64,000 nucleotides of DNA from Vulcanimicrobiota bacterium (GCA_963820825.1 CAWGBN010000007.1:288001-352000), one strand, 5' to 3'; shown: positions 16,430 to 60,226, counted from the first letter of the stretch. Translations and numbers: made by a program. The notes: a model not told the origin generated them from the letters alone.

Positions 16430-16798
16430 GCGCAGATCCGCAAACGCTTCCGCTTCGAGGCCGCGCATACGCTCCCGCACCATCCCGGGAAGTGTGCGCG
16501 GATGCACGGACATTCCTATCGCCTCGAGGTCGCCGTCACGGGCCCGCTCAAAACGCGCGGACCGGCGCGCGGCATGGTCGAGGATTTCGATCGTATCGAA
16601 CGCGCGGTCAACGAGCGCGTCGTCGACCTGCTCGACCACCAGTACCTCAACGACTTCATCGACAACCCGACGGTCGAAAATATCGTGCTCTGGATTTGGA
16701 AGCACCTCGAAACCGCCGTCCCTCGTCTGGACGAAGTCGTTCTCTGGGAGACCGCGACCGCGTGCGCCGTCCTCCGCCGTGCCGACGCCGCCCGCTAG
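16430..16798 (+). CDS. queD: 6-carboxy-5,6,7,8-tetrahydropterin synthase (no canonical start codon)
   Basis: QIRKRFRFEAAH-LP...KCARMHGHSY, LDHQYLN, NPTVEN, WET; frame opens with GCG right after the E2 TAA. Confidence 0.88.
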   Translation, partial: AQIRKRFRFEAAHTLPHHPGKCARMHGHSYRLEVAVTGPLKTRGPARGMVEDFDRIERAVNERVVDLLDHQYLNDFIDNPTVENIVLWIWKHLETAVPRLDEVVLWETATACAVLRRADAAR

Positions 16799-16827
16799 CG
16801 TGGCCACTCCTCGGCGTAATTGAAATT

Positions 16828-17402
16828 GTGTTGCAACTCAGCGAGATCTTCTACAGCATTCAGGGGAGGGCACGTGGGCCGGGACGCCGGCGGTATTCGT
16901 CCGTCTGGCCGGCTGTAACCTCGCCTGCGATTTCTGCGATACCGACTACTCGACGAAGTTCTTTTCAAGCGTTGAGGAGATCGTGGCGATGGTTCGCGCC
17001 GCCGGTGCCGATTGCCCGATGGTCGTGCTGACCGGCGGCGAACCGCTCGCACAGGCGCAGACGCTGGAGTTGATCGACGCCCTGCGCCGCGACGGCCGGC
17101 GCGTGCACGTCGAGTCGAACGGGACGATCTTCACCGAGCTGCCGCGCGACGTCTGGCTCTGCGTCTCGCCGAAGGAACGCGTCGATCCGCGCATGGCCGC
17201 GCGGGCCGACGAAGCGAAGCTCATCGTGGACGCGCGCGTTCCCGAAGAGCATCTCGCGCTCTTCGGCGAGCAGCCGACGATCCTGTTGCAACCCGAAGGG
17301 AACAAGCCGGCGAACGTAACGCTCGCCCTCGATTACGCGAAAGCGCACCCGAAACGCTTTCGCCTCTCGCTGCAGACGCATAAGTTCATCGGCGTGCCGT
17401 GA
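16828..17402 (+). CDS. queE: 7-carboxy-7-deazaguanine synthase (radical SAM), frameshifted near 16865
   Basis: EIFYSIQG/[E]G...FVRLAGCNLACDFCDT, TGGEP, ESNG, SPK, SLQTHK; one G missing in the CAGGGGAGGG run. Confidence 0.9.
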
Positions 17403-18010
17403 TACTGCTCGCCGCCGCGGTCGGCGCGGAACTCGAATCCTGGCAGGCGCCCGACGGCGTGGAGACGCTCATCACCGGAGTCGGACCGGTCGAAGCCTCG
17501 TGCGCCGTCGCCGCCGCGCTCGCGCAGCGCCGTTACGACCTGGTCGTCAACGCCGGAATCGCCGGCGTCTTCGACGGCGCGGCTTCGATTGGGGACGGGG
17601 TCGTGGTGGCGGAGGATACGATGGAGCTGGCACTCGAGAGCGGCGCACCGCTCGCGTTGCCGGTGGGGATCCGGCTCGTCGATACGGCGCGCTCGGACGC
17701 CGCCCTCGTGGAACGACTGAAAGCGAACGGCTTTGCCGCGCTTCGCGCCGTCACCGTTGCGCGCGTTACCGCAAGTGAGACGACCGCACGGCGTCTCGCT
17801 CGCGAATGCGGGGCGCAGGTCGAATCGATGGAGGGCTTTGCGGTCCTGCGGGCCGCGGAGCGTGCGGGCGTGCGAGCGGTCGAACTGCGCGGGATCTCGA
17901 ATCGCTGCGGTAATCGGGAGACGAGCGGATGGAGCTTCGCAGCGGGCGTTGCCGGGCTGCACCGCGTTCTCGATGCACTCTTCGCCCTCGATCGAAACGA
18001 AAGAGCGTAA
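17399..18010 (+). CDS. mqnB: Futalosine hydrolase
   Basis: TGVGPV-A, VNAGIAG, ESMEG, ELRGISN-CG-R...W; adjacent to mqnD. Confidence 0.85.
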   Translation: MILLAAAVGAELESWQAPDGVETLITGVGPVEASCAVAAALAQRRYDLVVNAGIAGVFDGAASIGDGVVVAEDTMELALESGAPLALPVGIRLVDTARSDAALVERLKANGFAALRAVTVARVTASETTARRLARECGAQVESMEGFAVLRAAERAGVRAVELRGISNRCGNRETSGWSFAAGVAGLHRVLDALFALDRNERA

Positions 18011-18011
18011 C

Positions 18012-18858
18012 GTGGCCGAATATACGCTGGCATACTCTCCGTGTCCCAACGACACGTACGTCTTCGCTGCGTTGACGAACGGGCTGCTCGACGGCGCGCC
18101 GTCCGTACGCGTCCACCTCGCCGATATCGAAGAGCTCAACACCTCGGCCGCGCGCGGCGAGTTCGAGCTGACCAAGGTGAGTTACGGCGCGATTCCCTCG
18201 CTGATGGACCGCTACCGAATTCTACCCTCCGGCGGCGCGCTCGGGCGCGCAAACGGCCCGTTGCTGGTGGCGCTTCCGGCCGAATCGCCGTCGCTCTTCG
18301 CCGAATTTGCGGGTAAGCGCATCGCAATTCCGGGCAGAGCACACGACCGCCTATCTTCTGCTGCAGCTCGCGCTCGGCGCGCGTCCGAGGACCGTCCCGA
18401 TGCGATTCGATCGCATCATCGCCGCGGTCCAACGCGGTGAGGTCGACGCCGGACTCATCATCCACGAATCGCGCTTTACCTACCGCGACGCCGGCCTGAT
18501 CGCGATCGCCGATCTCGGGGAGTGGTGGGAGAATATGACGCTGCTGCCGACGCCGCTGGGCGCGATTCTCATTCGCGACGATATCGCCGACGCCCAGGTG
18601 CGCGAGGTCGACGCGGCGATACGCCGCAGTCTCGCCTTTGCCCGGGCCAACGAAGCGGCGATCATGCCATACGTGCGGGAGCACGCCGTCGAGATGAGCG
18701 ACGAGGTCATGCGCGCGCACATCGAGCTCTACGTCAACGAGTTCACCGAGAACCTCGGCGAGATCGGGCGCAATGCCGTCCGCGCCTTGTTCTCGCGCGC
18801 CCACGACGCCGGCATTCTGCGCAAGGAGGTAGAGCCACGCTTCGCCGTCGTTTCCTAG
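18012..18858 (+). CDS. mqnD: 1,4-dihydroxy-6-naphthoate synthase, frameshifted near 18337
   Basis: [19 protein letters not shown]/[E][25 protein letters not shown]; extra A in CCGGGCAGAGCAC. Confidence 0.9.
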
Positions 18859-20066
18859 CCGGTAGCGCCGGACTCGCCCTGCGGCAACGGCGCGCGCTCG
18901 AGCCGAACCCGTGCCGCCGGCCCGCATCGAGCTCGGCGACGAAATGTTTCTGCGCGAACCTGGCGCGATCTCGGCAATCGCTGCGTCGGCGTCATCACCA
19001 ATCCGAGCGGCGTCACTTCGCGGCTCGAGTCGATCGTCGACGCGGTGCTGCCGCCACGGCGAATTGCGTCAAGCGCGATCTACGCACCCGAGCACGGCTT
19101 CCGCGGCGATCGCGGCGCGGCGCCGCGGTGGCGTCGTCGATCGATCCGCAGACGCACCTTCCTGTCTTCAGCCTCTACGGCGCGTCGCGCCATCCGAGCG
19201 CCGACATGCTCAACGGCGTCGACGTTCTGCTCTTCGACATTCAGGACGTCGGCTCGCGCGCCTACACGTACATCTCGACGATGGCCTACGCCATGCAAGG
19301 TGCGCGCGAAGCTTCGGCAAGAGAGTTCTGGGTGCTCGACCGGCCCAATCCGATCGGCGGCGAAATCGTCGAGGGTCCGGTGCTCGAGCCGGCCTACGAG
19401 TCGTTCATCGGTCTCTATCCGATTCCGATGCGCCACGGCATGACCATCGGCGAACTGGCCAGGACTCTTCAACGAACACTTCGGCATCGGCGCGCAGCTG
19501 CGCGTCGTGCCGAATGCACGGCTGACGTCGCTCGATGATCTGGCCGGATACCGGTTTGCAGTGGGTGCAGACCTCGCCGAACATTCCGGACTGGGAGACG
19601 ACCTCGTCTACGTCGGCACGGGACTCTCGACAACGCCGGCATCAACAACGGCAGCGGATTCACCAAGCCCTTCTTCCTCGCCGGCACCGCCGGGATCGAC
19701 GGCGCGCGGCTCGCCGCGCGCTTGAACGCGCTCGACCTCGCCGGCGTCTGGTTTCGTCCCGCCGCGTGGTCGCCGCTAACCGGCTTTTGGGAGCATCGCG
19801 AGCTCACCGGGGTCGAGTTGGTCGTCTTCGATCCACGCCGCTTCTACGCCGTGCGAACGGCGGTCGAAATCCTCGTGGCGGTTCGCGATCTCTTTCCCCA
19901 CGCGATCGGCGTGGCGAGCGTGAGCGGGCTCGACCGCGATTGGGGCACCGACACGATCAGGACCGGGCTGCTCGCCGGGAAGAGCGCCAACGAGATTTTC
20001 GCCCAGTGGACCGTTTCGGTCGCGCAGTTCGAATCGCTGCGCCGGCGATACCTGATCTACGATTAA
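18837..20066 (+). pseudogene. namZ: Exo-beta-N-acetylmuramidase NamZ/DUF1343 family with many frameshifts
   Basis: Fragments in alternating frames: Tat-like [61 protein letters not shown]. Confidence 0.85.
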
Positions 20067-25141: not shown

Positions 25142-25978
25142 ATGGGCGACGTACAGATTCCGTTGGAAGACACGTTCGGCGATATCGTGCGCAAGGCGAT
25201 GCGCGGCATCGGCATCGACGAAGCGCAGCTCGCGAGCGCTTCAGGGGTTCCCGGTTCGGAGATCGCCCGATGGCTGAAGGACGAGGGATTCGCCGACGAC
25301 GCCCAAGCGCGCGCGCTCGCGACGGTTCTGCGCCTCGACGCGGGCAAGCTCGCCGACAGCGCTGCGGCTCGCTGGCGGCCGCCCGAGATCGAACTCGCCG
25401 CGGTTCGCCGTCATCCACAGTTGCCGCATCCCAGCAACGGCTACGTCTTCTTCCTCGAGAGCGGGCGCCGAGCCGCGCTCGTCGACCCAGCCGGCATTCC
25501 GGCAAACCTTCTGCGAATCTTACGCGACGGCGATTACCATTTGCAGTATATCCTCATCACCCATAAGCACCCCGATCACTGCGACGCCACCGTTGAGGTC
25601 GCCGCAGCGTTTCCCGATGCTCGGATCGTGATGCACCAGCTCGACGTGCACGCGATCGGCGCGCTGGCCGGAAAAGCGCTGCCCGTGCGCAACGGGGAGT
25701 CACTGCCGTTCGGCGACGGCTCGAACATCCGCATGCTCCACACGCCCGGCCATACCGATGGCTCGTCGTGCTTCATCTTTCAGGACGCCGTCTTCTCCGG
25801 CGATACGCTCTTCGCTGCAAGCGTCGGCGGTGCGTACGGCGATACGAGCGGCTATGACGACATCCTCAACAACGTGCGGAGCAAGCTCTTCAAACTACCC
25901 GACGAAACCGTCGTCATGCCCGGCCATGGACCGCCGACGACGATCGCGCTCGAAAAGCACCACAATCCCTTCTTTTGA
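25142..25978 (+). CDS. MBL-fold metallo-hydrolase with N-terminal XRE-like HTH
   Basis: THKHPDH, TPGHT-G, FSGDTLF, PGHGP-TT; N-terminal GDIVRKAMRG-GID-AQLA-ASGV helix pattern. Confidence 0.88.
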   Translation: MGDVQIPLEDTFGDIVRKAMRGIGIDEAQLASASGVPGSEIARWLKDEGFADDAQARALATVLRLDAGKLADSAAARWRPPEIELAAVRRHPQLPHPSNGYVFFLESGRRAALVDPAGIPANLLRILRDGDYHLQYILITHKHPDHCDATVEVAAAFPDARIVMHQLDVHAIGALAGKALPVRNGESLPFGDGSNIRMLHTPGHTDGSSCFIFQDAVFSGDTLFAASVGGAYGDTSGYDDILNNVRSKLFKLPDETVVMPGHGPPTTIALEKHHNPFF

Positions 25979-26330
25979 TTCGGTCGACGACTACATCGGC
26001 TCGCAGCCGGAGAACGTCCGGTGCGTACTCGAACGCGTGCGCCGGGCGATACGAGAGGCCGTGCCCGAGAGCGAGGAGACGATTTCGTACAACATCCCGA
26101 CGCTTAAGCTCCAGGGTGCCACCGTTCTTCATTTTGCCGGATGGAGCGACTTCGTTTCGCTCTATCCCGCGAACGCACGCGTCGTCGCCGAGTTCGAAGA
26201 AGAGATCGCGCCGTATCTCGCCGCAAAGAGCACGCTGCGATTTCCGGTCGCAAAGGCGCTCCCCGTCGGATTGATCGAGCGGATCGCAAGGTTCCGCGCC
26301 GCGGAGATCGCCGAACGCGGCCGCGCCTAG
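25926..26330 (+). CDS. DUF1801/YdhG-like protein (start uncertain)
   Basis: SVDDYI, IREAVP--EETISY-IP, HFAGW---SLYP, KSTLRFP. Confidence 0.8.
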   Translation: MDRRRRSRSKSTTIPSFDSVDDYIGSQPENVRCVLERVRRAIREAVPESEETISYNIPTLKLQGATVLHFAGWSDFVSLYPANARVVAEFEEEIAPYLAAKSTLRFPVAKALPVGLIERIARFRAAEIAERGRA

Positions 26331-26336: not shown

Positions 26337-26708
26337 TTAACCGCGATAGGCTTCGGGAACGCTGATGGCGGCGCCGTCCTCGACGGCAATCGTCGCGCCG
26401 CTTCGCTTCGGCGCGCTTCCCGACTCGCGAATGAGCTCGAACTGCAAGACGGTCTGCCCGGAGGGCGGCAACTGCATGTCGAGCCGCTGCGGCGAGCAGA
26501 GACGCGGCGTGCAAAACGCGGCGAGCCAGCCCGGTGCTACGCCCCGAGCGCTCAGCCGCACCGAACCGTTGGGCTTCCCGCTGACCTCCAGCCGGTATTT
26601 CGCCGCAGTGTCGCTCGTAGCCTGAAAATCGGAGCCGGTCCACGGCTGTATGGCGAGATGGGTCGTCGTCTGTGCGAGCGCGAGCAGCATTGCGAAGAGA
26701 ATCATCAC
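26337..26708 (-). CDS. Small secreted hypothetical protein
   Basis: Hydrophobic N-terminus; GWLAAFCTPRLC Cys pair; GTGA overlap with the permease. Confidence 0.7.
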   Translation of the reverse strand: MMILFAMLLALAQTTTHLAIQPWTGSDFQATSDTAAKYRLEVSGKPNGSVRLSARGVAPGWLAAFCTPRLCSPQRLDMQLPPSGQTVLQFELIRESGSAPKRSGATIAVEDGAAISVPEAYRG

Positions 26709-27466
26709 GTACGCAGTTTATAACCGATTGCCGTCATGCGCAAGACGATCGCCAGCGCAACCGCGCAGAGCAACGCGATCATTGCGATGGAAAATGGAAG
26801 CGGAAGGTAGCTCTGCCCGGTGTAACTACGACGAAAGGCGTCGATCGTGTAGAAAATTGGATTAAAAAGCTCGAGATTCCGCAGCACCGGCGGAAGCATG
26901 GTGGCCGACGTAAAGACGCCGCCGACAAAAGTCAACGGGGTGATGACAAAAGTCGTGAGGATCGCGATGTGGTCGAACTTGTCGGCCAGCAAGCCGAAGA
27001 TCAGCCCGAGCGCCGAGAACAAGATCGAGACCATCGCGATCACGCAGAAGTAGAGCAGCCACTGCTGCGGAGCGATGTGGACGAGCAGCACGCCCAGCGC
27101 GGTGATCAAACCGGCGATGAGCAGCGAGCGCGCCAGACTCCCCAGCACGTACCCGGCCACGATCTCGGTTGCCGACATCGGCGCGATGAGCAGCTCCTGG
27201 ATCGAGTTCATGAAGCGCCCCTGGAAGAGCGAGCTCGAACACTCGCCGTACGACGAATCGATGACTTGCAGCATGATCAGGCCGGGAATGAGAAACTGAG
27301 AGTAACTGACGCCTTGGACGGTGGGAATCCGGCTTCCCAATGCCAGTCCGAAGACGAAGACGTAGAGCAGCGTCGTGATGATCGGCGGCCAGATCACCTG
27401 ATTGATGATCTTGAGGCTGCGAATCATCTCGCGCTTGACCAGCGTCCAGAGGCCATTGGGATTAAT
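26705..27466 (-). CDS. ABC-2 type permease (YadH-like); inferred ATT start
   Basis: NPNGLWTLVKREMIR, Y-QFLIPGLIM, ELLIAP, TPLTFVGGVF, NPIFY-ID-FR. Confidence 0.9.
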   Translation of the reverse strand: MNPNGLWTLVKREMIRSLKIINQVIWPPIITTLLYVFVFGLALGSRIPTVQGVSYSQFLIPGLIMLQVIDSSYGECSSSLFQGRFMNSIQELLIAPMSATEIVAGYVLGSLARSLLIAGLITALGVLLVHIAPQQWLLYFCVIAMVSILFSALGLIFGLLADKFDHIAILTTFVITPLTFVGGVFTSATMLPPVLRNLELFNPIFYTIDAFRRSYTGQSYLPLPFSIAMIALLCAVALAIVLRMTAIGYKLRT

Positions 27467-28214
27467 TGCGCATCAGCTCCAGAAAGACGTCTTGCAATGA
27501 GGCTCCATCGGCGACGAGCTCTTCGGTCGGCTTCTCGGTGACGATGCGGCCGTTCCGAATGATGGCGATGCGCTTGCAGAGCTGCTCGGCTTCCTCGAGA
27601 TAGTGCGTCGTCAGAAAGATCGTCAGGCCGCCGTCGTTGAGCGAGCGAAGCCACTGCCAGAGCTCCAAGCGCAGCTCCACGTCGACTCCGGCCGTCGGCT
27701 CGTCGAGAATCAAGAGGCTCGGCTGATGAATCAAAGCTCGCGCCAGCGAAAGGCGGCGCTTCTGCCCGCCGGAGATCTTCGTATACTCCAAGTGGGCGTG
27801 CGCGGTCAGGCCGAAGCGCTCGAGCAGCATGTCGGCGCGCTCGGCGACTTCCTTGCCGCGCAGACCGTAATAGCCGGCGGCAAAGATCAAGACGTCGCGC
27901 AACGAGAGGTACCGGTCGAAGTTATACTCTTGCGGTGAGAGGCCGATCAAGCGCCGCGCGTGCCGCCAGTCACGCTCGTTGTCGTGACCGAAGATACGAA
28001 TGCTCCCGGAACTCTTTTGCGCGAGGCCGACGATTGCGTTGATCGTCGTCGTCTTGCCTGCGCCGTTTGGTCCGAGGAAACCGAAGAACTCCCCCGCGCC
28101 GACGCGCAGCGAGATGCCGTCGACTGCGGTAAACGCGCCGTATCGCTTCACGAGGCGATCGACCTCGACGGCGGGTGCGCTAGGGCCTTGTGCTAGGGAA
28201 TCGAGTTCTTTAAT
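27462..28214 (-). CDS. ABC transporter ATP-binding protein (YadG-like); start uncertain
   Basis: GPNGAGKTT, ISGGQKRR, LILDEPTAGVD, TTHYLEEA; first strand AVEVDRLVKRY lies upstream of the first GTG (28151). Confidence 0.92.
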   Translation of the reverse strand: MKELDSLAQGPSAPAVEVDRLVKRYGAFTAVDGISLRVGAGEFFGFLGPNGAGKTTTINAIVGLAQKSSGSIRIFGHDNERDWRHARRLIGLSPQEYNFDRYLSLRDVLIFAAGYYGLRGKEVAERADMLLERFGLTAHAHLEYTKISGGQKRRLSLARALIHQPSLLILDEPTAGVDVELRLELWQWLRSLNDGGLTIFLTTHYLEEAEQLCKRIAIIRNGRIVTEKPTEELVADGASLQDVFLELMRN

Positions 28215-28924
28215 TGCTTATACCGGTGCCGGCGGAGGGTGGCGATGAGCTCTGCACTCCCCGGAATCCCTGAATCGGCTAATTGGGTTGCGACCTTTTT
28301 CACATCGAACGCGACGCGCCGGTGCTTCACCTGCCAGCCGCCGTCGCGCTCGCTGAAGATCGCGTAGCTCGCGCGCGGATCGCCGTCCTTGGGCAGACCC
28401 GCCGATGACACGTTGACGAGAAGCTTCCCACGCCACAAGCGCGCGAAGGGGATGTGCAGGTGGCCGAAAGCGATCGCCGCCGCCGCGTCGTTGCCGATGA
28501 GCCGCTCGAGCGTTGAGTCGTCCGCGTCGGGCCAAATATACTCGTCGTCGGTAAGCACGTTCGCGTGGACGATCAAGAGTTGATTCTGATCCTCGCCGAT
28601 TCGCAATGCAAATGGCAGCTCTTTGAGCCACGAGAGCCAGCGCTCGCCGATCTCGCGGCGCGACCACGCGATTTGAGCCGCTTCGGCCGCCTCGAAGGTC
28701 TTACCGGGCGAATCCTCGACGAGATCGCGATCCCTATTGCCGCGAACGCACGCGGCACCGATCTCCTCGAGCCGCTGCAGCACTTTCTTGGGCTTCGGGC
28801 CCGGCGAGCAAAGATCGCCGGCGACGACGATCGCGTCGGCTCCGCCCTGCGATTCGAGGTCGGCCAGACACGCATCGAGGCCTAAGAGATTTCCGTGAAC
28901 GTCGGAAAGTACGGCGATTCGCAT
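28193..28924 (-). CDS. Metallophosphoesterase (calcineurin-like, YfcE type)
   Basis: SDVHGN, AGD, RGNRD, VHA, FGHLH motifs. Confidence 0.9.
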   Translation of the reverse strand: MRIAVLSDVHGNLLGLDACLADLESQGGADAIVVAGDLCSPGPKPKKVLQRLEEIGAACVRGNRDRDLVEDSPGKTFEAAEAAQIAWSRREIGERWLSWLKELPFALRIGEDQNQLLIVHANVLTDDEYIWPDADDSTLERLIGNDAAAAIAFGHLHIPFARLWRGKLLVNVSSAGLPKDGDPRASYAIFSERDGGWQVKHRRVAFDVKKVATQLADSGIPGSAELIATLRRHRYKQLKNSIP

Positions 28925-32102: not shown

Positions 32103-33191
32103 ATGCGGGCTGCGGGGCCCCTGCCGAAGGAGGGAAACGTCGCTACGAGCAGCGACGCGAGGATTCTTGCGGTCTCGACGGCCGTTCCGCCCTTCGAGCT
32201 GGGACAAGCCGACGTAACGCGGCGAATCGAACTCGCGCTAGGCCCCCATTCGCGCGAGATCGTGCGTCTGCTCCCCATGTTCGGCAATACGGGCATCGAA
32301 CGACGCTATTCGTGCGTGCCGATCGAGTGGTACGAGCAACTCCACGAATGGCCGGAGCGCAACCAAGTCTATCTCGACTCGGCGATCGATCTGCTCGAGG
32401 AGGCAACGCGACGCGTGCTCGTACGGGCGGGGCGCCGGGCCGAAGAGATCGACGCAATCGTCGTCGTCTCCACGACCGGAATAGCGACGCCGAGTCTCGA
32501 CGCGCTGCTGATGGAGCGCATGGGCCTGCGCCGAACCGTGAAACGCCTTCCGATCTTCGGGTTGGGTTGCGCCGGAGGAACGATCGGCTTGGCCCGTGCC
32601 GCGGCACTCGCGCGCATGCAGCCCGGTTCGCTGGTGCTCTTTCTGGTGGTCGAGCTCTGCGCGCTCTGCTTTCGCCGCGACGATTTCTCCAAGAGCAATA
32701 TCGTCGCGACCGCGCTCTTCGGTGACGGCGCGGCGGCCGCGTTGATCTCCTCGGATTGCGACGGCGCGCGGATCGTCGGCAGCGGCGAGTACACGTGGCC
32801 CGACTCGCTCGACGTCATGGGGTGGGAAGTTACCGGCGAGGGACTCAAAGCGATCTTCTCGCGCGACATTCCCGAACTCGTCACGACGAAGCTGCACGAC
32901 GTCGCGGTCGAGTTTCTTGCCGAGCGCGGGCTGCAGCTGCGCGACGTCGACCGCTTCGTCTGTCATCCCGGCGGTGCCAAGGTACTCGACGCGTTGGAAG
33001 TCGCCTTCGAGTTAGAGCCGGGAACGCTCGAAGCGTCGCGCGACGTGCTGCGCGACTACGGGAACATGTCCGCCGCTACGGTGATGTTCGTGCTCGAGCG
33101 CACGATCGGCGATTCGCAGCCGTGGCGACGCGCACTCGTCAGCGCGCTGGGTCCCGGCTTCACCGCCGGCTTCACGCTGCTCGAATCCTGA
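32103..33191 (+). CDS. Type III polyketide synthase (BpsA/SrsA-like)
   Basis: Catalytic GLGCAGG, ALFGDGAAA, HPGG-K, GNMS, LGPGF. Confidence 0.95.
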   Translation: MRAAGPLPKEGNVATSSDARILAVSTAVPPFELGQADVTRRIELALGPHSREIVRLLPMFGNTGIERRYSCVPIEWYEQLHEWPERNQVYLDSAIDLLEEATRRVLVRAGRRAEEIDAIVVVSTTGIATPSLDALLMERMGLRRTVKRLPIFGLGCAGGTIGLARAAALARMQPGSLVLFLVVELCALCFRRDDFSKSNIVATALFGDGAAAALISSDCDGARIVGSGEYTWPDSLDVMGWEVTGEGLKAIFSRDIPELVTTKLHDVAVEFLAERGLQLRDVDRFVCHPGGAKVLDALEVAFELEPGTLEASRDVLRDYGNMSAATVMFVLERTIGDSQPWRRALVSALGPGFTAGFTLLES

Positions 33192-33733: not shown

Positions 33734-35035
33734 ATGCTCGTCGATCGGCTGACGACGCTCTCCGAGCGGCTCTACTCATATGCGCAGCGGTACGAGCTTC
33801 TTCAGGACTCCCGCGCGATCTTCGCCACCACCTACGGACTCATTACGAAGATTATTGCGCGCGAGCTCCCAAAGAGGACCTGGAATGATGCAGATTTTGT
33901 GGTGCGCCTCGCCGAGGCGTTTTCGGCACGCTACCTTGCCGCCCTAGATGCTTACGACCGCGGCGAAGCTCCGGATCCCGCTTGGACGAACGTCTTCAAG
34001 GTCACGGCATCGACACGTACGTCGGTCGTCGAAGACCTGATCTGCGCCATGGCGGCGCATATCATTCACGATCTCCCGATCGCCTTGAACGATGCGTCGT
34101 TTCAAGCGAGCGGGCCAAACGCGCACGTTGCCGATTTCAATCAAATGAACGCGGTCTTGGACGACGGAATCAACGAGATCTTTCAAACGCTGACCGCCCG
34201 TTATAATCCGGCCCTGCGCTGGCTCGAACTCCTGGGCTGGCGCAACGAAGAGCTCCTCACAAACTACGGAATCGCACTCAGTCGCGCGGCCGCCTGGTAC
34301 AACGCTTGCCGCCTCCAATCCGACGACCGCGTGGCCGCGAGTGCGTCGATCGAACGCAGCTCGCAGATCCTCATCAACGATCTGCTTCATCCGCCGCTCT
34401 TCTCGGTCGACCTCGTGCTGCGCGCCTTTCGTTGGCTCGCGGCGCTCGGCCGGCGCTGGCCTTCCCGGGCAGTCGTCCCCAATCCACTGCCGCCTCAGGC
34501 CCAAGCGAACCGGAACTACTATTTTCATATCGGCGCCGGCTGCTGGCGTGGCACGTTCACGTTCTCGATTACCGATCTCAAGGCGCTGATGAACGAGAGA
34601 ATGCCGCTGAAGCAGCGGTTTCTCGCGCTGATCATCGCCGGCATCATGCTCGTCCTGCGATCGGCTCCGATTCTTTCGCGAATTCACGCCTTTCCGGATC
34701 AAAACGTCAACGGCGTCGCCTTCAACGTTATCCGCATCGCGTTTGCCGGAATCACGCTCTATCTCTCCCGGGAGGTTTATACGCTACTTCCGGACGGCCA
34801 CGGCGTTTTCGTCGAGACGAAACAGCGTTTTGGTCCATTTGCTTTCTTACTGAACTTTCGGACCCGATACCCGGCCGTGGTCGAGGGAGAGGGAAATCAT
34901 ACGCAATATCAGATTCCGCTCCTAGCCACCAGTTGGCTTGGAGATTATCGCGTCGCCGCGGACGAACGCCACATCGACTCACGCGTCTCCTGCCCCTGGG
35001 GGATCGCCCAGGAACACATCGATAAGCAAGCCTAG
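33734..35035 (+). CDS. DUF5995-like protein with an extra C-terminal domain
   Basis: F---Y---T, F--RYL-A-D, W--VF, AHI-HDLP-AL, DFN-MN-VL pattern; further ~180 aa unrecognised. Confidence 0.65.
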   Translation: MLVDRLTTLSERLYSYAQRYELLQDSRAIFATTYGLITKIIARELPKRTWNDADFVVRLAEAFSARYLAALDAYDRGEAPDPAWTNVFKVTASTRTSVVEDLICAMAAHIIHDLPIALNDASFQASGPNAHVADFNQMNAVLDDGINEIFQTLTARYNPALRWLELLGWRNEELLTNYGIALSRAAAWYNACRLQSDDRVAASASIERSSQILINDLLHPPLFSVDLVLRAFRWLAALGRRWPSRAVVPNPLPPQAQANRNYYFHIGAGCWRGTFTFSITDLKALMNERMPLKQRFLALIIAGIMLVLRSAPILSRIHAFPDQNVNGVAFNVIRIAFAGITLYLSREVYTLLPDGHGVFVETKQRFGPFAFLLNFRTRYPAVVEGEGNHTQYQIPLLATSWLGDYRVAADERHIDSRVSCPWGIAQEHIDKQA

Positions 35036-36510
35036 AGCTTTGTTTCCACACGCACGAGTCGTTTCAACGCGCGCCCGAGCCGCGCGATTCCTTCGCGCGC
35101 CTCCTCGTCGTTGAGATGCCCGAACGATAAGCGCAGCGCCGGCGGACCGCTTCGCGTCGGATAGAACGGCTCGGCCGGCATGACGAGCACGCCCTCGCGC
35201 GCGCACGCGTCGAATGCCGCTTGCGTCGAGATGCGCGGCGGAAGCGGCAGCCAAACGTTGACTCCGGCGCCCGGCGACCGCACGGTCGTCCAACGCGCAA
35301 CTGCGGAGAGCGCCTCGACGAATGCGTCGCGCCGCTTGCGATAGAGTGCGCGCGTCGTGCGAAAGTGGCGGCCGCAGGCAGAGCTCTCCATGAATCGCCA
35401 AAGCGCGCGCTGGGTGAGCGTCGACGTGAAGACGTCGGCGCGCACCTTGGCCGCTTCGAGCGCTTGCGCGATCCCACCCTTCGCGTAGAGATACCCGATG
35501 CGTAACGCGGGGAAGATGGACTTCGAGAGGCTCTCCATCAGGATGACGCGCCCGTCGCTATCGTGCGCGGCCAGCGGCGGCGGCGCGGGTGCATCGTAGG
35601 TGAGCTGCCATCCGGTTTGATCCTCGAGTACGACGACGTCGTAGCGGCGCGCCAGTGCGACGATCTGCTTGGCACGGCGCGCCGGCAGCACCGCGCCGGT
35701 CGGATTCTGCGCGATTGGATTGACGTAGAAGAGCCGCGGCCGGTATTCGGCAAAGACGCGCTCGACGTCGTCGGCGCGCACGCCGTCCTCGTCACCGCGC
35801 ACCTCGACGTAGGTGACGCCGCGCGCGTCGAAGACTCCGAGGCTCCCCCAATAGGTTGGGCTCTCGCTCGCGACGACGCTGCGTTCGTCGAGGAGGACGG
35901 TCGCGACGATATCCGCGGCCTGCTGCGCGCCCGAACAGACGATGACCTCATCTGCGCCGGCGCTGCAGCCGCGTCCGCGCAGCAGCGCGGCGAGCTTCGC
36001 ACAGAGATCGTGATCTCCGGTCGACGAACGGTATTGCATGAGCTCCGCCGAGTCGTCGAGCAGCGTGCGATGAAAGGCACGGGCAAAATCGTGAAGCGGG
36101 AAGGTCTCCGGCGCGGGATGCCCGCTCGCGAGCGAAATCGCACCCGGCTCGGTCGCACTCGTCAGCCGTTCCATGACGCCTTCGAGCCGGGTGCCGCGCG
36201 CGAAGCGGCCGACGTCGGGCTCCCACCGCCGAGCGAAGGGTTCCGCGCGATCGGGCGGCTCGGCAACGTAGGTTCCCTTTCCGGGACGCGCAGTTGCCCG
36301 GCCGCGAGCGCGCAGCAGCTCGTAGGCTTGCGAGACGGTGACGAGCGCGCAGCGCAATGCTCGAGCGAGCTCGCGCATCGCCGGAAGCCGCTCGCCGGAG
36401 CGGAGCTCGTCGTTCTCGACCGCTTCGACGATGCGGTCGGCAAGTTGCACGTAGAGCGGTCGCGGATCGCTCGGATCGAACTTCAGCGATCGAAGCAGCG
36501 CGTCAGACGT
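35032..36510 (-). CDS. MocR/GabR family PLP-dependent transcriptional regulator; inferred ACG start
   Basis: GntR wHTH PLYVQLA...GERLPAMRELA...GKGTYV; aminotransferase QNPTG, SLSKSIFPALRIG. Confidence 0.92.
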   Translation of the reverse strand, partial: TSDALLRSLKFDPSDPRPLYVQLADRIVEAVENDELRSGERLPAMRELARALRCALVTVSQAYELLRARGRATARPGKGTYVAEPPDRAEPFARRWEPDVGRFARGTRLEGVMERLTSATEPGAISLASGHPAPETFPLHDFARAFHRTLLDDSAELMQYRSSTGDHDLCAKLAALLRGRGCSAGADEVIVCSGAQQAADIVATVLLDERSVVASESPTYWGSLGVFDARGVTYVEVRGDEDGVRADDVERVFAEYRPRLFYVNPIAQNPTGAVLPARRAKQIVALARRYDVVVLEDQTGWQLTYDAPAPPPLAAHDSDGRVILMESLSKSIFPALRIGYLYAKGGIAQALEAAKVRADVFTSTLTQRALWRFMESSACGRHFRTTRALYRKRRDAFVEALSAVARWTTVRSPGAGVNVWLPLPPRISTQAAFDACAREGVLVMPAEPFYPTRSGPPALRLSFGHLNDEEAREGIARLGRALKRLVRVETKL

Positions 36511-37958: not shown

Positions 37959-39293
37959 CTAGTTGCCGCTCACCGTCATCTCGGCGACGCGAAACGACGG
38001 CGAGACGACGGGACCGTCGAAACGCAGATCGTTCGCAATCGCGTCGATGCCCGCAAGGATCTCGGGGTATTGGCCGGCGATGGTGAACTCATCGATGGGA
38101 TAGGCGAGTTCGCCGCCTTCGATCAGAAAACCGCGCGCGCCCCGGCTGTAGGTGCCCGACGCATGTTCGGTCGCAAAGCCGATAGTGTCCATCACCAGCA
38201 CACCTAGCGGCGTCGAGCCGATCAGCTCCTGCAGCGAGATCGTGCCGGCTTCCAAATAGAAGTTCGTCGGCCCGATACCTCCGCCGGTGGAGTTGCCGGT
38301 GCTCGCCGCGCTGAGCTTTCGCGCGTAATACGTATCGTAGAGAAACGACTGCAGCACGCCCCGCTCGAAGACCGGCGTCCGGCGCGTCGGCACGCCCTCG
38401 CCGTCGAAGGGCGACGAGCCCAATCCGGCCGGCACCCGGCCATCGTCGGCGACGTTGACGAGCTCGCTGCCGATATGGTTGCCGATCTGACCGCTCAGCC
38501 ACGAGTTTCCCGTCGCGACGTTCGCCGCCGACACGGCGGCGAAGAGATCCTCGAGCAGCGACGCGGCGACGTCGCGTTCGAAGATGACCGGAACGCGCAT
38601 CGTCGGCGGCTTGCGGGCGCCGAAGAGATCGACGGCGCGCCGTACGGCCGTTTCGGCGACGAGTTTGGGCGCTTCGAGGTCGCCCAGATAGCGGGCCGCG
38701 GTTCCGTACTGCGCGATCCGCTTGACGTCGCCATCGAGCGCGACGGGCCCGGTCGAACGCCCGGCGCGCGTCCAGCCGTAGGCGGCGGCGAATCCCAGTG
38801 AGTTCGCGAGCGCGGTGACGCCGGTGGCGTCGGTATAGTGCGAACCGCTCGAATTGGAGACGCGCGGGTCGGCGGCGCGAATCAACCGCTCGAGGGCGAG
38901 TGCCTCTTCGACCTTCTCGGCGCCGTCGCGCCGCTCGATTCGCTCGTCGGAAAGACGAAGATCGGCGCCGCCGGCGGGAACCTCAGTTTGCGGTAATCCC
39001 GCGTATTCGTCGGAGGCGACGAGATCGGCGTGAGCCACCGCGCGAGCGACCGCCTCGCGCAAGCCGTCGTTCGTAAGATCCGAGGTTGAGAGCGTCGCCC
39101 TTCGCCCGTCGCGAAAGACGCGCAGGAAGAGGCTCTTGCCGATCGACCCCTCCAGCCGCGCCACGACGTCTTCGCGCGCTTCGGCGTGAAAACGCCGCGC
39201 GATCGAAACCGAGGCCTCGGCGTTCTCCGCACCGGCGGCCCGCGCTAGCGAAAGCGCCGCGCTCGCTAAGTCGATAGCCGCCGATTCATCCAT
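37959..39293 (-). CDS. pmbA: TldE/PmbA family protein
   Basis: PFDGEG, STGN, G-YSRGA-GF-IE-GE, TIAG, SPSF; no HExxH; follows tldD. Confidence 0.92.
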   Translation of the reverse strand: MDESAAIDLASAALSLARAAGAENAEASVSIARRFHAEAREDVVARLEGSIGKSLFLRVFRDGRRATLSTSDLTNDGLREAVARAVAHADLVASDEYAGLPQTEVPAGGADLRLSDERIERRDGAEKVEEALALERLIRAADPRVSNSSGSHYTDATGVTALANSLGFAAAYGWTRAGRSTGPVALDGDVKRIAQYGTAARYLGDLEAPKLVAETAVRRAVDLFGARKPPTMRVPVIFERDVAASLLEDLFAAVSAANVATGNSWLSGQIGNHIGSELVNVADDGRVPAGLGSSPFDGEGVPTRRTPVFERGVLQSFLYDTYYARKLSAASTGNSTGGGIGPTNFYLEAGTISLQELIGSTPLGVLVMDTIGFATEHASGTYSRGARGFLIEGGELAYPIDEFTIAGQYPEILAGIDAIANDLRFDGPVVSPSFRVAEMTVSGN

Positions 39294-40698: not shown

Positions 40699-42155
40699 AA
40701 TTCCGCCAGCCGATCGACCGCGCGTACGATCGCGGCATCGGGGTCGCCGGGCGACCCGTCGATGAGAAACGCAAATGCGACGCGTCCGTGCCTCGGCGTC
40801 GTTACGTATCCGGCGAGCGCGCTGACGCCGGAGAGATGGCCGCTCTTCGCGCGAACCCGGCCAAGCGCCGTCGTGAAATCATAATCGTCGAGCGTTCCCT
40901 GACGGCCGCCCAACGGCAAGAGTCGATAGAGCGACGGTTCCTGATCCTCCAACAGCCGCGCGAGCGTGATTCCCGCTACGCGATCTCCGGGCGAAAGGCC
41001 GCTGCCGTCGAAGAGCTTCAAACCCGGCGCCGGAATGCCGCGGCGTTCGAGAAACTGGCGCTCGGCATCGATTCCGCCGGCATCGTTCCGGGTCTGTGCG
41101 ACCTCCGCGCCGACAGTTCGTAAGAGTTGTTCTGCGTAATGATTATCGGAGACGTAGAGCATGTGACTTTCCAGCGTGTCAAGCGGCGCCGAGCGATGAT
41201 CCCAGAGCACGACGCTTTCGAGCGGCGCCGCCCCGATCGCCGGCGGCATCGCTGGGGGAACTCCCTGGGCGACCAGCATGCCGTTTAGGCGATCGGCGAC
41301 GTAGCGCGGAACGTCTTGCATCGGGGTGAATACGCGCTGCGCAACCCCGCCGACCTCCTGCGTCGATTCAATCCGGTCGCCGTCGAGCGAGATCGCGCTG
41401 GTCGGCGGAGCGTAATCCTGTCCGGCATCGTCCGGGCTCCAATGCGGGTTGAGCTCCGGTCCGCTCAGCGTCGTGTCGTCGACGACCACCCGGCCTTCGA
41501 TCCGCCGCACGCCCGCGTGCGCGAGCGCGCCGACGCCGTTGCGGAGGTCCGCCGACTCCAGCGACGGGTCGCCCGATCCGATCAGCCAAAGGTCGCCGTC
41601 GATCGCACCGTCATCGCCGATGCCGTCGTGCGCCGCAAAGATCGTGTGATAGCGGTACTGCGGCCCGAGCGCGTCGAGCGCCGTCGCCGCAACGATCAGC
41701 TTCTGCGTCGAGGCGGGCGTAACGGCTCGTTCCGCCCGATCGTCGTAGATCGTGCGCCCATCGGCCCCAATTACCGCCAAGCTCCACGCACTCGCCCCCG
41801 CCAGCACCGGCGCGAACGCCCCACGCAGTTCGCCTCCCAGTCTGTTGCGCTCGTCGTTACTCCAGGACGTCACGACCGGCACTGCCGTCGCACACGTCCT
41901 TTCGGTTGAGGGGCCTCTCAGTTTTCCGTCGACACACGAGGTGTTTTTCAAAGCTTGCTCTACGGAAACCTGAGCGGAGCTCGCCGAGGACACGACGTCC
42001 GAGGCGTGCGTCCCCGAAGCCGAATGGACGCGTGCGACGAGCAGCCCGACAATTACCAAAGCCAGGAGAGTGACGATCGCAACCGCACGCCTCTTACGCG
42101 CGCGCGATCGCCTCGATCTTCTCCTGTAGCCTACGGTGCTGTTCGCGTAGTTCAT
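40695..42155 (-). CDS. dacB: D-alanyl-D-alanine carboxypeptidase/endopeptidase (peptidase S13)
   Basis: PASTQK (SxxK), GSGDP, SDN, DGSGLS, KSG; N-terminal membrane anchor. Confidence 0.92.
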   Translation of the reverse strand: MNYANSTVGYRRRSRRSRARKRRAVAIVTLLALVIVGLLVARVHSASGTHASDVVSSASSAQVSVEQALKNTSCVDGKLRGPSTERTCATAVPVVTSWSNDERNRLGGELRGAFAPVLAGASAWSLAVIGADGRTIYDDRAERAVTPASTQKLIVAATALDALGPQYRYHTIFAAHDGIGDDGAIDGDLWLIGSGDPSLESADLRNGVGALAHAGVRRIEGRVVVDDTTLSGPELNPHWSPDDAGQDYAPPTSAISLDGDRIESTQEVGGVAQRVFTPMQDVPRYVADRLNGMLVAQGVPPAMPPAIGAAPLESVVLWDHRSAPLDTLESHMLYVSDNHYAEQLLRTVGAEVAQTRNDAGGIDAERQFLERRGIPAPGLKLFDGSGLSPGDRVAGITLARLLEDQEPSLYRLLPLGGRQGTLDDYDFTTALGRVRAKSGHLSGVSALAGYVTTPRHGRVAFAFLIDGSPGDPDAAIVRAVDRLAEF

Positions 42156-44658: not shown

Positions 44659-45399
44659 TTACTCGGCGGCGGTCTGCAGGCCGCCCGTTACTTCGATTAC
44701 GGTGCCCGTGATGAAGTCGCGCTCGGCCGCAACCAAAAAGCGCACTGCATCGGCAACGTCTTCGTAACTCCCCGGACGCCCGCGAGGATTGCGCGCCGCC
44801 TGCTCCAACGCCACCGAGCGCTCGAGCGACTTCTGACGGATATCCCCCGGCGCGACGACGTTGACCGTAATGCCGTGGCGCGCTTCTTCGATTGCCAGGC
44901 AGCGCGCAAACGCAACGAGCCCGCTCTTTGCCGCCTGGTAGAGCGAAAGACTGAGAAACGGCCGCGTCTCACTCGAACCGAGCATCCCGAAGAAGACGAC
45001 GCGGCCGAAGGCTGCCTCGCGCATTGCGGGGATGAGCGCGCGCGCGCTCAGAATCGCGCTGCGCAAGTTTCCATCGATGGCCTGCCGATAATCGTCGAGC
45101 GTCGTCGCGGCGAAGCGCTTGACGACGAGCGGGCCGACCGCGTGCACCAGCGTGTCGAACGGGCCGTGGGTTCGCGCGATCTCCTCCAGCGCGCTCTCGA
45201 CCGCCCCCGCATCGTCCAAGAAATCGACTCGGGCCGCCGCCGTCGCAGCACCGGCAGCTTCGATGGCCGCCATCGTCTTGTGTGGAGGCTTCGAGCGATA
45301 GGTAATCGCGACGCACGAGAAGCCGTCACGCGCTAACGCGGGTGCGATGCCGGCGGCGAGGCCGCCGGCTGCTCCCGTCACGAGCGCGCGACGATTTAC
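44659..45399 (-). CDS. Short-chain dehydrogenase/reductase; start uncertain
   Basis: RRALVTGAAGGL, YQAAK, ITVNVVAPG, FITG--I-V-GG. Confidence 0.9.
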   Translation of the reverse strand, partial: VNRRALVTGAAGGLAAGIAPALARDGFSCVAITYRSKPPHKTMAAIEAAGAATAAARVDFLDDAGAVESALEEIARTHGPFDTLVHAVGPLVVKRFAATTLDDYRQAIDGNLRSAILSARALIPAMREAAFGRVVFFGMLGSSETRPFLSLSLYQAAKSGLVAFARCLAIEEARHGITVNVVAPGDIRQKSLERSVALEQAARNPRGRPGSYEDVADAVRFLVAAERDFITGTVIEVTGGLQTAAE

Positions 45400-45415
45400 C
45401 GGCGCGCGAATCGCT

Positions 45416-58428: not shown

Positions 58429-58436
58429 CGCCTGCA

Positions 58437-59294
58437 GTGATTCAGAAGAACTTTTATTTCCTCGCGCGCCGGTTCGTAGCGGGCGAGGATATCGACTCGG
58501 CGATACGCGCCGTCCGCGCGCTCAACGAGCAGGGAATGACCGCGACCTTGGACTTTCTCGGCGAGGACGTCTTGGAGCGCGACGCGGCGTTGCGCCAGCG
58601 AGAGGTCTACCTCGAGATGCTCGACGCGATCGCCGCGAGCGGCGTCGATTCGAACGTCTCGGTGAAGCTCACCGCGATGGGCTTGCTCGTCGACGAGAAT
58701 TTCGCGCTGGAGAATCTGGCCGCAGTCGCCGAGCGCGCGCAAGCGAACCGCGATCCCTTCGTCCGCATCGACATGGAGGGCTCCGCCGTGCTCGAAGCGA
58801 CGCTGCGAATCTTTGCTCGCGCGTACGCCGAACACAAAAACGTCGGCCCCGTGCTGCAGGCCTATTTGAAGCGGACGCGATCCGACGTCGAGCGTGCGAT
58901 CGAGCTTGGTGCGCGCGTTCGTCTCTGCAAAGGTGCGTATAACGAACCGCCCGAGATCGCATACAAGCAAATGCCGGAGATCCGCGAGCATTATCTAGAC
59001 TCGGCTCGCGAGCTGCTGTCGCGGGGGGTCTATCCGGGCATCGCAACCCACGACCATCGTTTGATCGCCGCCGTCAAGCGTTTCGTCGTCGAGCATCGCA
59101 TCGCAAACGACCGCTTCGAGTTCCAAATGCTCTACGGGTGCCGGTCCGGCGTTCAGCGGGCGATCGTCGCCGAGGGCTACCGCTTACGCATCTACGTGCC
59201 GTTCGGAACGCATTGGGCCGGGTATTTCTACCGCCGTGTCCTGGAGCGCAGAGAGAACGCGCTCTTCGCCCTGTCGTCGATTTTTTCGCGCTGA
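58437..59294 (+). CDS. Monofunctional proline dehydrogenase
   Basis: RFVAGE, D-LGE, SVKLT, RIDME, QAYL-R, RLCKGAY, ATHD, FQMLYG, Y-RR--ER. Confidence 0.93.
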   Translation: MIQKNFYFLARRFVAGEDIDSAIRAVRALNEQGMTATLDFLGEDVLERDAALRQREVYLEMLDAIAASGVDSNVSVKLTAMGLLVDENFALENLAAVAERAQANRDPFVRIDMEGSAVLEATLRIFARAYAEHKNVGPVLQAYLKRTRSDVERAIELGARVRLCKGAYNEPPEIAYKQMPEIREHYLDSARELLSRGVYPGIATHDHRLIAAVKRFVVEHRIANDRFEFQMLYGCRSGVQRAIVAEGYRLRIYVPFGTHWAGYFYRRVLERRENALFALSSIFSR

Positions 59295-59743
59295 TGCGGG
59301 CAGTCGTTCAGCGCGTCGCGGGGGCGCGCGCACGCGTGGGAGCCCGGACCACCGGCGAGATCGGAACCGGCCTCCTCGGGCTGGTCAGCGTCGGGGTCGA
59401 CGACGAGGAAGCTGACGCTCGCGCGATGGCCGAGAAGCTGGCGGGACTCCGGATCTTTCCCGACGATCGCGGGCTCATGAACCGCTCCGTGGTCGAAGCG
59501 GCCGGCGCCGTGCTCCTCGTCTCCCAGTTCACGCTCCACGGCGACGCCAGGCATGGCCGGCGACCCTCGTTCATCGCGGCGGCGAGAGAACCTCAGGCCC
59601 GGGCCCTCTTCGAGCTGACCGGCGCCTGCCTGGAAAAGGCCGGAATCCCCGTCGCCTACGGCGAGTTCGGTGCCCAGATGGAGGTCGAGCTGGTCAATAC
59701 CGGCCCGGTGACGATCCTGCTCGATACCAAACGTCTGTTCTAA
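59294..59743 (+). CDS. dtd: D-aminoacyl-tRNA deacylase
   Basis: MRAVVQRV, LRIF-D, VSQFTL, RRPSF, FGA-M-V-LVN-GPVT. Confidence 0.95.
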   Translation: MRAVVQRVAGARARVGARTTGEIGTGLLGLVSVGVDDEEADARAMAEKLAGLRIFPDDRGLMNRSVVEAAGAVLLVSQFTLHGDARHGRRPSFIAAAREPQARALFELTGACLEKAGIPVAYGEFGAQMEVELVNTGPVTILLDTKRLF

Positions 59744-59887
59744 CCAGGCAGATACCTGCCTTACTGCTCGAGCCGGGCACTTTTCATCATGCTTGAACCT
59801 TCAGGCCAAACTTTCGGGCCCCAAGCTGCGTTGTAGTAGGTGGAGACAATAAAGCGGCCGCCAATCCCGTGCGGCACGAATAACTAG

Positions 59888-60226
59888 GTGAAAACGAAAG
59901 AAATGATGACGGAACAGAAGCGGGGCGGCGGCATGTCGGTCCGGGAAGCCGGCCAAAAAGGCGGCGAAACGGTAAAGCAAAAATACGGTGCAGAGTTCTA
60001 CGAGATAATCGGCCGTAAGGGCGGACTCGCAACGAAAGAGGCCCATGGCCACGAGTTCTACGAGCAGATCGGCAAGAAGGGTGGAAAGAAGGGCGGCGAA
60101 GCGACGCGTGATCGCTATGGCCCCAACTTCTACGAACGCATTGGCCAAAAAGGTGGGCAAAAAGTCAAGCAGCTCATCGAAGAGGGCAAGCGCGCGGCCA
60201 CCGACCGTAAGCAACGCGCAAGCTAA
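59888..60226 (+). CDS. KGG-repeat general stress protein (GsiB/Em-like)
   Basis: MSVREAG-KGG plus three FYE-IG-KGG repeats. Confidence 0.9.
   Translation: MKTKEMMTEQKRGGGMSVREAGQKGGETVKQKYGAEFYEIIGRKGGLATKEAHGHEFYEQIGKKGGKKGGEATRDRYGPNFYERIGQKGGQKVKQLIEEGKRAATDRKQRAS

Follow-up and report, generated by a model that had tools for sequence, protein, structure and literature searches.

Missing canonical start codons at gene junctions of Candidatus Cybelea and their possible replacement by near-cognate codons

How is translation started in a gene that carries no ATG, GTG or TTG ahead of its essential N-terminal elements? The question was raised by a 64,000-nucleotide (nt) stretch of DNA, here called the window (G000:C7:288001-352000; window coordinates are counted from its first letter), from an uncultured soil bacterium of the genus Candidatus Cybelea, phylum Eremiobacterota (Vulcanimicrobiota), whose close relatives are also placed in Baltobacteraceae. 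In the initial annotation, recurrent absence of canonical start codons (ATG, GTG or TTG) was claimed for seven main cases, queD, namZ, an ABC-2 permease, an ABC ATPase, a MocR-type regulator, an SDR oxidoreductase and a secreted protein, and for two weaker ones, a type III polyketide synthase (PKS) and a DUF1801 protein. Judged from the comparisons described here, the lack of a usable canonical start is largely real for queD, namZ, the permease, the ATPase and the SDR oxidoreductase, with the reservation that the ATPase in G000 still has GTG 28151. The claim was not established for MocR, the secreted protein and the two weaker cases. Near-cognate initiation at eroded start codons, helped by coupling to upstream translation, is the best reading of the five solid cases, and we hold it with moderate confidence.

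The G000 genome comprises 2.98 Mb with 64% G+C in 9 contigs and was scored 85% complete. Three genes, queE, mqnA and namZ, are each broken by one or more frameshifts in G000 at ~16.8-20 kb (16824-20066), while relatives have them whole. Combined with 85% completeness in just 9 contigs, this points to indel errors of long-read assembly and not to biology. Because of this damage, every claim of a missing start needed checking against other genomes. A crude caller based on a self-trained codon model listed 66 open reading frames (ORFs) in the window, of which roughly 50-55 look real, and the 5' region of each listed ORF was aligned with the 80-kb syntenic regions from four genomes of the genus (G018, G014, G006 and G002). 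Wider sampling covered 79 family loci for the permease, 75 family and 12 genus loci for the ATPase, 29 other genera and 30 genus loci (G000 counted among the 30) for queD, 30 family and 30 genus loci for namZ, 29 genus loci for SDR and 17 for MocR. The start column is the alignment column that holds the start codons of the orthologues, and ATH stands for ATT, ATC or ATA. Pfam profiles were used for gene identities and for the positions where domains begin. The family loci included unpublished genomes (L185 in the queD table; L205, L208, L213, L220 and L228 in the namZ family table); omitting them altered nothing, the queD column then being canonical in 28 of 28 genera.

The cleanest case is the permease, where ATT alternates with ATG, GTG and TTG at a single column. 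ATT 27466, the start proposed in the initial annotation, falls on that column, which held ATT in 50 of the 79 family loci and a canonical codon in 13 (GTG 5, TTG 5, ATG 3), with a canonical codon one to three codons away in 17 more. In 44 loci ATT stood on the column and no canonical codon preceded the motif LWTLVKRE, which is conserved at the protein level while its codons vary synonymously. The ATG that comes next, in 'REM', was found in only 33 loci and was absent in 46, which argues against a truncated permease started from that codon.

For queD, which encodes a 6-carboxytetrahydropterin synthase, the proposed GCG 16430 likewise lies on the family start column. The frame reads on after the TAA of the upstream E2 acyltransferase gene as GCG CAG ATC CGC AAA, and in all 29 other genera the position of GCG is canonical (ATG 15, GTG 11, TTG 3) and is followed by CAG ATH CGN AAR. 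Within the genus only one locus is canonical: the column holds GCG in 10, TCG in 6, GTC in 5, ACG and CTG in 3 each, ATT in 2 and ATG in 1, and in most of the 30 an in-frame stop stands directly ahead of it. GCG 16430 thus marks the true ancestral start, the canonical codon having been lost within Cybelea, and by this comparison the loss is confined to the genus or one of its subclades. In G000 the first canonical codon is an ATG at codon 25, past the first zinc-binding His, so that a start there would cost 24 residues including a zinc ligand; positions 2-120 of the 121 in the Pfam PTPS profile correspond to QueD residues 3-117. Each of the 29 non-canonical codons on the column differs from ATG, GTG or TTG at a single position, a property shared by only 18 of the 58 non-canonical sense codons, although relatedness and mutational proximity weaken this test. 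The nearest classical near-cognate codon is ATC 16436, two codons past GCG, and this site is ATH in 27 of the 30 genus loci. Fusion of E2 and QueD by stop readthrough or programmed frameshifting was considered and rejected: the frame relation is not conserved, the E2 stop being in another frame in G018 and the upstream context different in G014.

The proposed namZ start, ACG 18837, aligns with ATG, TTG or GTG of relatives, lies behind AAGGAGG and a 7-nt spacer, and is the first codon of the twin-arginine-like signal peptide. It is situated 19 nt ahead of the mqnA stop (18856-18858). At this column the genus loci showed ATG in 9, ACG in 9, TTG in 6, GTG in 3 and CTG in 3, and the ACG state was common to the species with a '..ATLRR.FL' N-terminus. 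In other genera, surveyed in 30 family loci, the start was mostly canonical, and one genus has only an ATH. Since a Tat-type signal peptide must be N-terminal, canonical starts elsewhere are disfavored for namZ. In G002 and G013, moreover, an in-frame stop four codons upstream leaves ACG as the sole candidate.

In the ATPase of G000 an in-frame TAA is followed by GCA and ATT 28214, after which neither a canonical nor a near-cognate codon occurs until GTG 28151, the sole canonical alternative, inside 'LVKRYG'. Initiation at this GTG would cost the protein strand beta-1 and place the A-loop tyrosine three residues from its N-terminus. Of the 12 genus loci, 8 have GTG 28151 and 4 lack it, one of the latter having no canonical codon before 'TAVDG'; no conserved canonical start was found in the 12 genus loci or the 75 family loci. 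At least 12 of the 75 family loci lack any canonical codon before KRYG. ATC or ATA stands at 'PA-I-EVD' in all eight loci of the stop-RVxFHS form, where the upstream frame is closed by a stop. These family counts of the ATPase were read from the printed alignment, since the ungapped anchor drifted and made the automated tally unreliable. Near-cognate initiation is accordingly required in many species, and ATT 28214 is the probable start in G000. The proposal of ATT 28214 was therefore supported by the species that have no canonical option, and was left less firm in G000 itself by GTG 28151. In the upstream metallophosphoesterase gene, ACG stands in the G018 orthologue in place of the ATG of other genomes, and a GTG lies three codons ahead of it.

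In the SDR oxidoreductase the column lies two codons before RRALVTG, the Ala of which corresponds to position 3 of the adh_short profile. G000 has GTA there, as the initial annotation had suggested as one of two options, and its closest relatives have GTG. The 29 genus loci comprise GTG in 4 (these relatives), TTG in 4, ATG in 1, CTG in 7, GTA in 2, CTA in 1 and other codons in 10; GTG, TTG, ATG or CTG is thus present in 16, and in some of the loci with other codons a TTG or ATG lies upstream instead. In G000 the first canonical codon is GTG 45381, inside 'LVTG', and a start there would delete the first strand (beta-1) of the Rossmann fold. G014 and G006 have no canonical option.

Table 1. Window features discussed in the text, with strand and candidate initiation sites
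Feature	Coordinates	Strand	Remarks
queD, 6-carboxytetrahydropterin synthase (PTPS family)	16430..16798	+	no canonical start; GCG 16430 on family start column
TAA stop of upstream E2 acyltransferase gene (15119-16429)	16427..16429	+	in frame with queD, directly abutting
namZ, exo-beta-N-acetylmuramidase, twin-arginine-like (Tat-type) signal peptide	18837..20066	+	several frameshifts in G000; intact in relatives
namZ initiation region	18823..18839	+	AAGGAGG 18823-18829, 7-nt spacer, ACG 18837-18839
ABC-2 permease	26705..27466	-	start ATT 27466-27464 (putative), overlapping ATPase TAA (A-ATT-AA)
ABC ATPase	27462..28214	-	candidate start ATT 28214-28212, 22 nt inside upstream phosphoesterase gene
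SDR oxidoreductase	44659..45411	-	GTA 45399 on start column; ATT 45411 4 nt past upstream TAA (45418-45416)
Metallophosphoesterase gene upstream of ATPase	28193..28924	-	canonical ATG start; TAG stop 28195-28193
MocR-type regulator	35032..36510	-	candidates ACG 36510 (8-nt overlap with upstream TGA), CTG 36486, canonical GTG 36450
Secreted protein	60117..61019	+	no canonical codon between upstream stop (60224-60226) and signal peptide core
Type III PKS	32103..33191	+	ACG 32145 aligns with ATG of relatives; in-frame ATG 32103 available
DUF1801 protein	25926..26330	+	candidates ATG 25926 (53-nt overlap with upstream gene), ATC 25965
Indel-rich zone	16824..18858	+	queE and mqnA each split by frameshift in G000; genes of relatives intact with canonical starts

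The alignments show that the absence of canonical starts in the five genes is conserved across species, and that the codons proposed for them in the initial annotation stand on or beside the start columns of the orthologues and next to upstream stops. Since the same states recur in many independent related assemblies, they are not an error of G000. The upstream gene is on the same strand in all five cases. The candidate start of queD follows the upstream stop by 0 nt (GCG) or 6 nt (ATC) and that of SDR by 4 nt (ATT) or 16 nt (GTA), and the overlaps with the upstream gene are 5 nt for the permease and 22 nt each for namZ and the ATPase. The earlier statement that most of the starts lie at or near an upstream stop was borne out for the five cases, with 22 nt of overlap and 16 nt of separation as the extremes, and this position is what reinitiation coupled to termination, also proposed there, would predict.

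In the mechanism that we favor, at least these five genes would have lost the ATG, GTG or TTG that orthologues carry. Translation would now begin at a codon that differs from a canonical one by a single mismatch and lies on the ancestral start column or no more than a few codons from it. The likely codons are ATT in the permease and probably also in the ATPase, ACG in namZ, GCG or ATC in queD, and GTA or ATT in SDR. Genes elsewhere in G000 point the same way, since infC, an aminotransferase, mreC and parA, described below, have no canonical start either. Ribosomes that end the upstream gene would stay on the mRNA and re-initiate on the weak codon with the ordinary initiator tRNA, resulting in low but sufficient expression. 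The exact codon, the use of formylmethionyl-tRNA, the dependence on upstream translation and the expression level are what we infer from these arrangements. In E. coli, AUU, AUC, AUA and CUG are reported to initiate at 1-2% of the AUG level and other codons at 0.1-1% (bioRxiv 10.1101/063800), so expression from such starts should be low unless coupling helps. Re-initiation in E. coli is described as needing initiator tRNA and as being damped by initiation factor 3 (IF3) (PMC2268962). No paper on start codons in Eremiobacterota was found, as judged by title and abstract.

Several observations weigh against near-cognate initiation in this form. The likely start of queD is GCG 16430 or nearby ATC 16436, and that of SDR GTA 45399 or nearby ATT 45411, and the comparison does not choose within either pair; at the position of ATC 16436, 3 of the 30 genus loci have CTC or CTT, and the column codon in these three is CTG or GCG. 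Nor does the comparison single out the exact start codon of the ATPase, and in G000 a start at GTG 28151 is possible and would leave the Pfam ABC_tran domain uncut. The SDR GTA occurs only in G000 and one other genome; it may reflect a genuine G-to-A change or, as far as G000 alone is concerned, an erroneous base. Each of the codons GCG, GTA and GTC has two mismatches to the anticodon, and only very weak initiation would be expected from it. The 22-nt overlaps of namZ and the ATPase exceed the -4/-1 or very short distances given as typical of termination-reinitiation (PMC10666635). Finally, G000 is an error-prone assembly, with the incomplete genome, the 9 contigs and the frameshifted queE, mqnA and namZ described above.

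The most serious rival is lineage-wide relaxation, in which the initiation machinery of Cybelea, or of all Eremiobacterota, uses any codon that differs from NUG by one mismatch with useful efficiency and start codons drift freely, several percent of genes depending on them. We consider this rather unlikely. It would accommodate the five solid cases among roughly 55 window genes and the variety of one-off codons on start columns (ACG, GCG, TCG, GTC, GTA, ATT and CTG), which persist across many species. The ordinary majority of genes speaks against it: most window genes keep a positionally conserved ATG, GTG or TTG over the five genus genomes, some swapping among the three (for example the genes at 13096, 14010, 14930, 23321, 24147, 37962 and 57601, mqnB and rpoD), and queD is canonical in every other genus sampled. 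Two further cases of start-column turnover were recorded in the window. In a TldD/PmbA-like gene (39289-40878, minus strand) one column holds ATG in G014, GTG in G018 and ATH in G000 and G002, with a TTG six codons upstream, and in the gene at 58943-59743 (plus strand) GTG, ATG, ATG, CTG and TTG are found at one start column.

The initiation machinery of G000 also gave no sign of relaxation. The infC gene (C6:47388-48044, plus strand) starts at ATA (47403), 7 nt behind GGAGG, and infC of G026, a class-level relative, likewise starts at an ATH codon. A near-cognate infC start with a strong Shine-Dalgarno site is the usual layout for autoregulation by IF3, and its retention implies that IF3 still discriminates. 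The initiator tRNA is single and ordinary, with C1-A72 and, in the anticodon stem, three G-C pairs (GGG/CCC). Among the nine tRNAs inspected, no second initiator-like tRNA reading ACG, GCG or TCG was found, and the CAU tRNA was the only one with a 1-72 mismatch. The 3' end of the 16S rRNA is the canonical CCTCCTTTCT (...GATCACCTCCTTTCT), and the anti-Shine-Dalgarno sequence is ordinary. Thus, of the three components inspected in G000 (initiator tRNA, anti-Shine-Dalgarno and infC layout), none was unusual, and inspection of infC and the initiator tRNA, which had been proposed as a check for altered initiation, returned the ordinary state. ARAGORN also reported a tRNA-SeC and an unusual tRNA prediction whose anticodon has four bases (ctga). 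Shine-Dalgarno use is weak, a point in favor of relaxation: GGAG, GAGG or AGGA occurs between -18 and -4 in only 32% of the 382 unambiguous starts, about one third of clear starts despite the canonical anti-Shine-Dalgarno. For the same reason a genome-wide codon table anchored on Shine-Dalgarno motifs was uninformative, with ~208 of 660 events canonical and ATH and ACG showing no spacing peak.

To estimate how common such starts are, G000 was compared with 1.2 Mb of G026 in 533 gene pairs. The strict test, which asked for protein conservation ahead of the first canonical codon, is blind to genes with a spurious in-frame canonical codon farther upstream, and its simulated sensitivity was ~50% (215/433). 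It gave 8 hits, of which 3 were judged real (infC, an aminotransferase and mreC); a relaxed list added parA and the window ATPase. The genome-wide tally suggested in the initial annotation thus yielded further cases, but only 5 real ones in the 533 pairs, which counts against relaxation. The class-III-like aminotransferase (C6:425621, minus strand) has ATT 6 nt past an in-frame TGA with GAGGTGA in front and no canonical codon for 50 codons; its G026 orthologue has ATG. In mreC (C6:197500, plus strand), which directly follows maf, no canonical codon precedes the membrane helix, and in parA/soj (C6:210521, minus strand) none occurs until a GTG just ahead of the P-loop motif; CTG or ATH codons are the only candidates in both. 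The rejected strict hits were the prfB programmed frameshift, one frameshifted lipoprotein and 3 spurious calls. The prfB (release factor 2) gene (C7:367612, minus strand), outside the window, showed the expected frameshift layout in G000 and G026 and served as an unplanned positive control. In the lipoprotein gene (C8:502609, plus strand) the signal peptide (MRHAMLAAL...) is out of frame with the rest (FFGCAG...), probably because of a 1-nt indel and not a non-canonical start. The BLAST screen behind these hits was run with no composition correction, and most of its 100 'no canonical' calls were artefacts of alignments over-extended into arginine-rich out-of-frame translations; the strict filter reduced them to the 8.

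At 43 unambiguous G026 start columns G000 was canonical in 31; of the remaining columns 6 had a one-off codon and 6 a different one. Two to six of these G000 genes lack a nearby canonical codon, and the reverse comparison gave 1-9 of 55 for G026. These figures, and G026 cases similar to those of the window (infC, truA, scpA and smc), are in line with relaxation. On G026 C2, truA has no canonical start (ATH at 'Y-I-SLVVEYDG'), scpA shows CTG CTG, and the ATH of smc aligns with an ATG of G000. In well-annotated genomes, annotated starts are given as ATG 81.8%, GTG 13.8%, TTG 4.35% and non-canonical ~0.05% (bioRxiv 10.1101/063800), and five cases among the 66 listed ORFs are far above that annotated baseline. 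The counts suggest near-cognate starts in 1-10% of genes, a rough estimate made without a control genome from another phylum, so that the excess over ~0.05% is uncontrolled. Global relaxation of start selection is a possibility supported neither by the machinery nor by the majority of genes, and the lineage-wide form put forward in the initial annotation did not stand as worded. The related claim that in Cybelea, perhaps in the whole class, any codon one mismatch from AUG, GUG or UUG (including ACG, GCG, UCG, GUC and GUA) is a stable start for several percent of genes, mainly at operon junctions, is made tentatively, and we are more inclined to doubt than to accept it.

Improbable as a general explanation is the use of canonical codons after all, with proteins either truncated from a downstream ATG or GTG or extended by long overlaps with the upstream gene. 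It fits the four cases that were set aside, for which a near-cognate start is not established by the alignments and canonical alternatives appear workable. A MocR start at GTG 36450, present in 12 of the 17 genus loci, trims only 2 positions of the GntR profile, and ACG 36510, the start first proposed, is not established. No upstream canonical codon is conserved for MocR in these loci, and its other candidates are CTG or TTG at 'S-L-K' and ACG or GCG at 36510. The secreted protein has in-frame ATG 60117, TTG 60141 and GTG 60153, all inside the upstream gene and the last conserved in 5 of 5 genomes; GTA 60207, the start first suggested, is not positionally conserved and is a by-product of the overlapping upstream gene. 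In the PKS, the column matching the ATG of relatives is ACG 32145 and not the proposed GTC 32139, and ATG 32103 is present in addition. DUF1801, said to lack a canonical start, has ATG 25926; its gene seems absent or different in the relatives compared. The frequency of GTG 28151 in the ATPase of the genus points in the same direction. Against a general use of canonical codons stand the zinc ligand lost from QueD, the missing downstream permease ATG, the N-terminal signal peptide and upstream stops of namZ, the strand lost from SDR together with the two genomes that offer it no canonical codon, and the species whose ATPase has none before the A-loop tyrosine.

We regard assembly errors, or gene decay in G000 alone, as very improbable overall. 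The frameshifts and contiguity of G000 and the frameshifted appearance of the lipoprotein gene would agree with such errors, and the SDR GTA and PKS ACG are nearly private to G000. The same codons, however, occur in many independent short-read and long-read assemblies (ATT in 50 permease loci, ACG in 9 namZ loci, non-canonical queD columns in 29 of 30 loci), the ORFs remain open and the proteins are conserved, so for queD, namZ, the permease and the ATPase this explanation is largely refuted. C-to-U editing of start codons occurs in plant organelles. Editing of NCG starts (ACG, GCG or TCG) to AUG, GUG or UUG would suit the 19 of 30 queD loci with NCG, where the first base is A, G or T and never C and the third always G, and the ACG on ATG columns in namZ, the G000 PKS and the G018 phosphoesterase, but we give it the least credence of all, since to our knowledge no such editing of start codons is known in bacteria, T-to-C is no more than the most frequent single change by which NTG is lost, and the ATT, GTC, GTA and CTG columns would be left unexplained.

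Near-cognate initiation at gene junctions has consequences for annotation and for the evolution of start codons. Gene finders for metagenome-assembled genomes accept only ATG, GTG and TTG, and such genes are therefore annotated as truncated, over-extended or missing. This mis-annotation skews protein families, signal-peptide calls and completeness estimates for a phylum widespread in soil and peat. The loci provide unusually clean comparative evidence for ATT and ACG as stable start codons over many speciation events, ATT being held in 50 of 79 species for the permease and ACG in a subclade of about ten species for namZ. They also raise the idea that translational coupling lets start codons erode, all five solid starts being beside an upstream stop. 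If one-mismatch starts were indeed stable lineage-wide, start codons would erode and yet persist through many speciation events. The lineage would then be a natural example of reduced fidelity in start-codon choice, and every automatic annotation of the phylum would assign wrong starts to ~100 genes per genome.

Among known systems, infC and pcnB of E. coli are AUU-initiated, with weak starts sensitive to IF3. The Cybelea genes resemble them in having a near-cognate codon in place of ATG, GTG or TTG in an intact conserved gene, and infC of G000 itself has ATA behind GGAGG. They differ in that several ordinary metabolic and transport genes are involved within 64 kb, in that the codons include ACG and possibly GCG, TCG, GTC and GTA, and in that most cases have no good Shine-Dalgarno site and lie at gene junctions. 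The termination-reinitiation model for M13 genes V and VII (PMC2268962; PMC10666635) shares with the putative coupling proposed here a downstream start that abuts or overlaps the upstream stop, a weak or absent Shine-Dalgarno site and ribosomes delivered by upstream translation, whereas the start there is AUG and two of the overlaps here are 22 nt as opposed to the classical -4/-1. A recJ mutant with a GUA start codon is reported to be suppressed by IF3 mutations (Haggerty and Lovett 1997, as cited in PMC2268962). Its GUA start, which lacks a Shine-Dalgarno site and is coupled to an upstream ORF, has the layout seen at SDR GTA 45399; it is, however, a laboratory mutation that needs altered IF3, while GTA occurs naturally in the SDR gene of 2 of 29 genus loci. 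The precedent in the literature most similar in kind is Deinococcus deserti, for which non-canonical starts are named for dnaA (ATC), rpsL (CTG), Deide_03051 (CTG) and infC (ATA) and were proven by N-terminal proteomics (PMC2830850). In both lineages the non-canonical starts are conserved and are recognized by conserved N-terminal elements upstream of any canonical codon. Those of Cybelea are put forward from comparative genomics, and the four D. deserti genes named there are from a whole genome, compared with five in a single 64-kb window of Cybelea.

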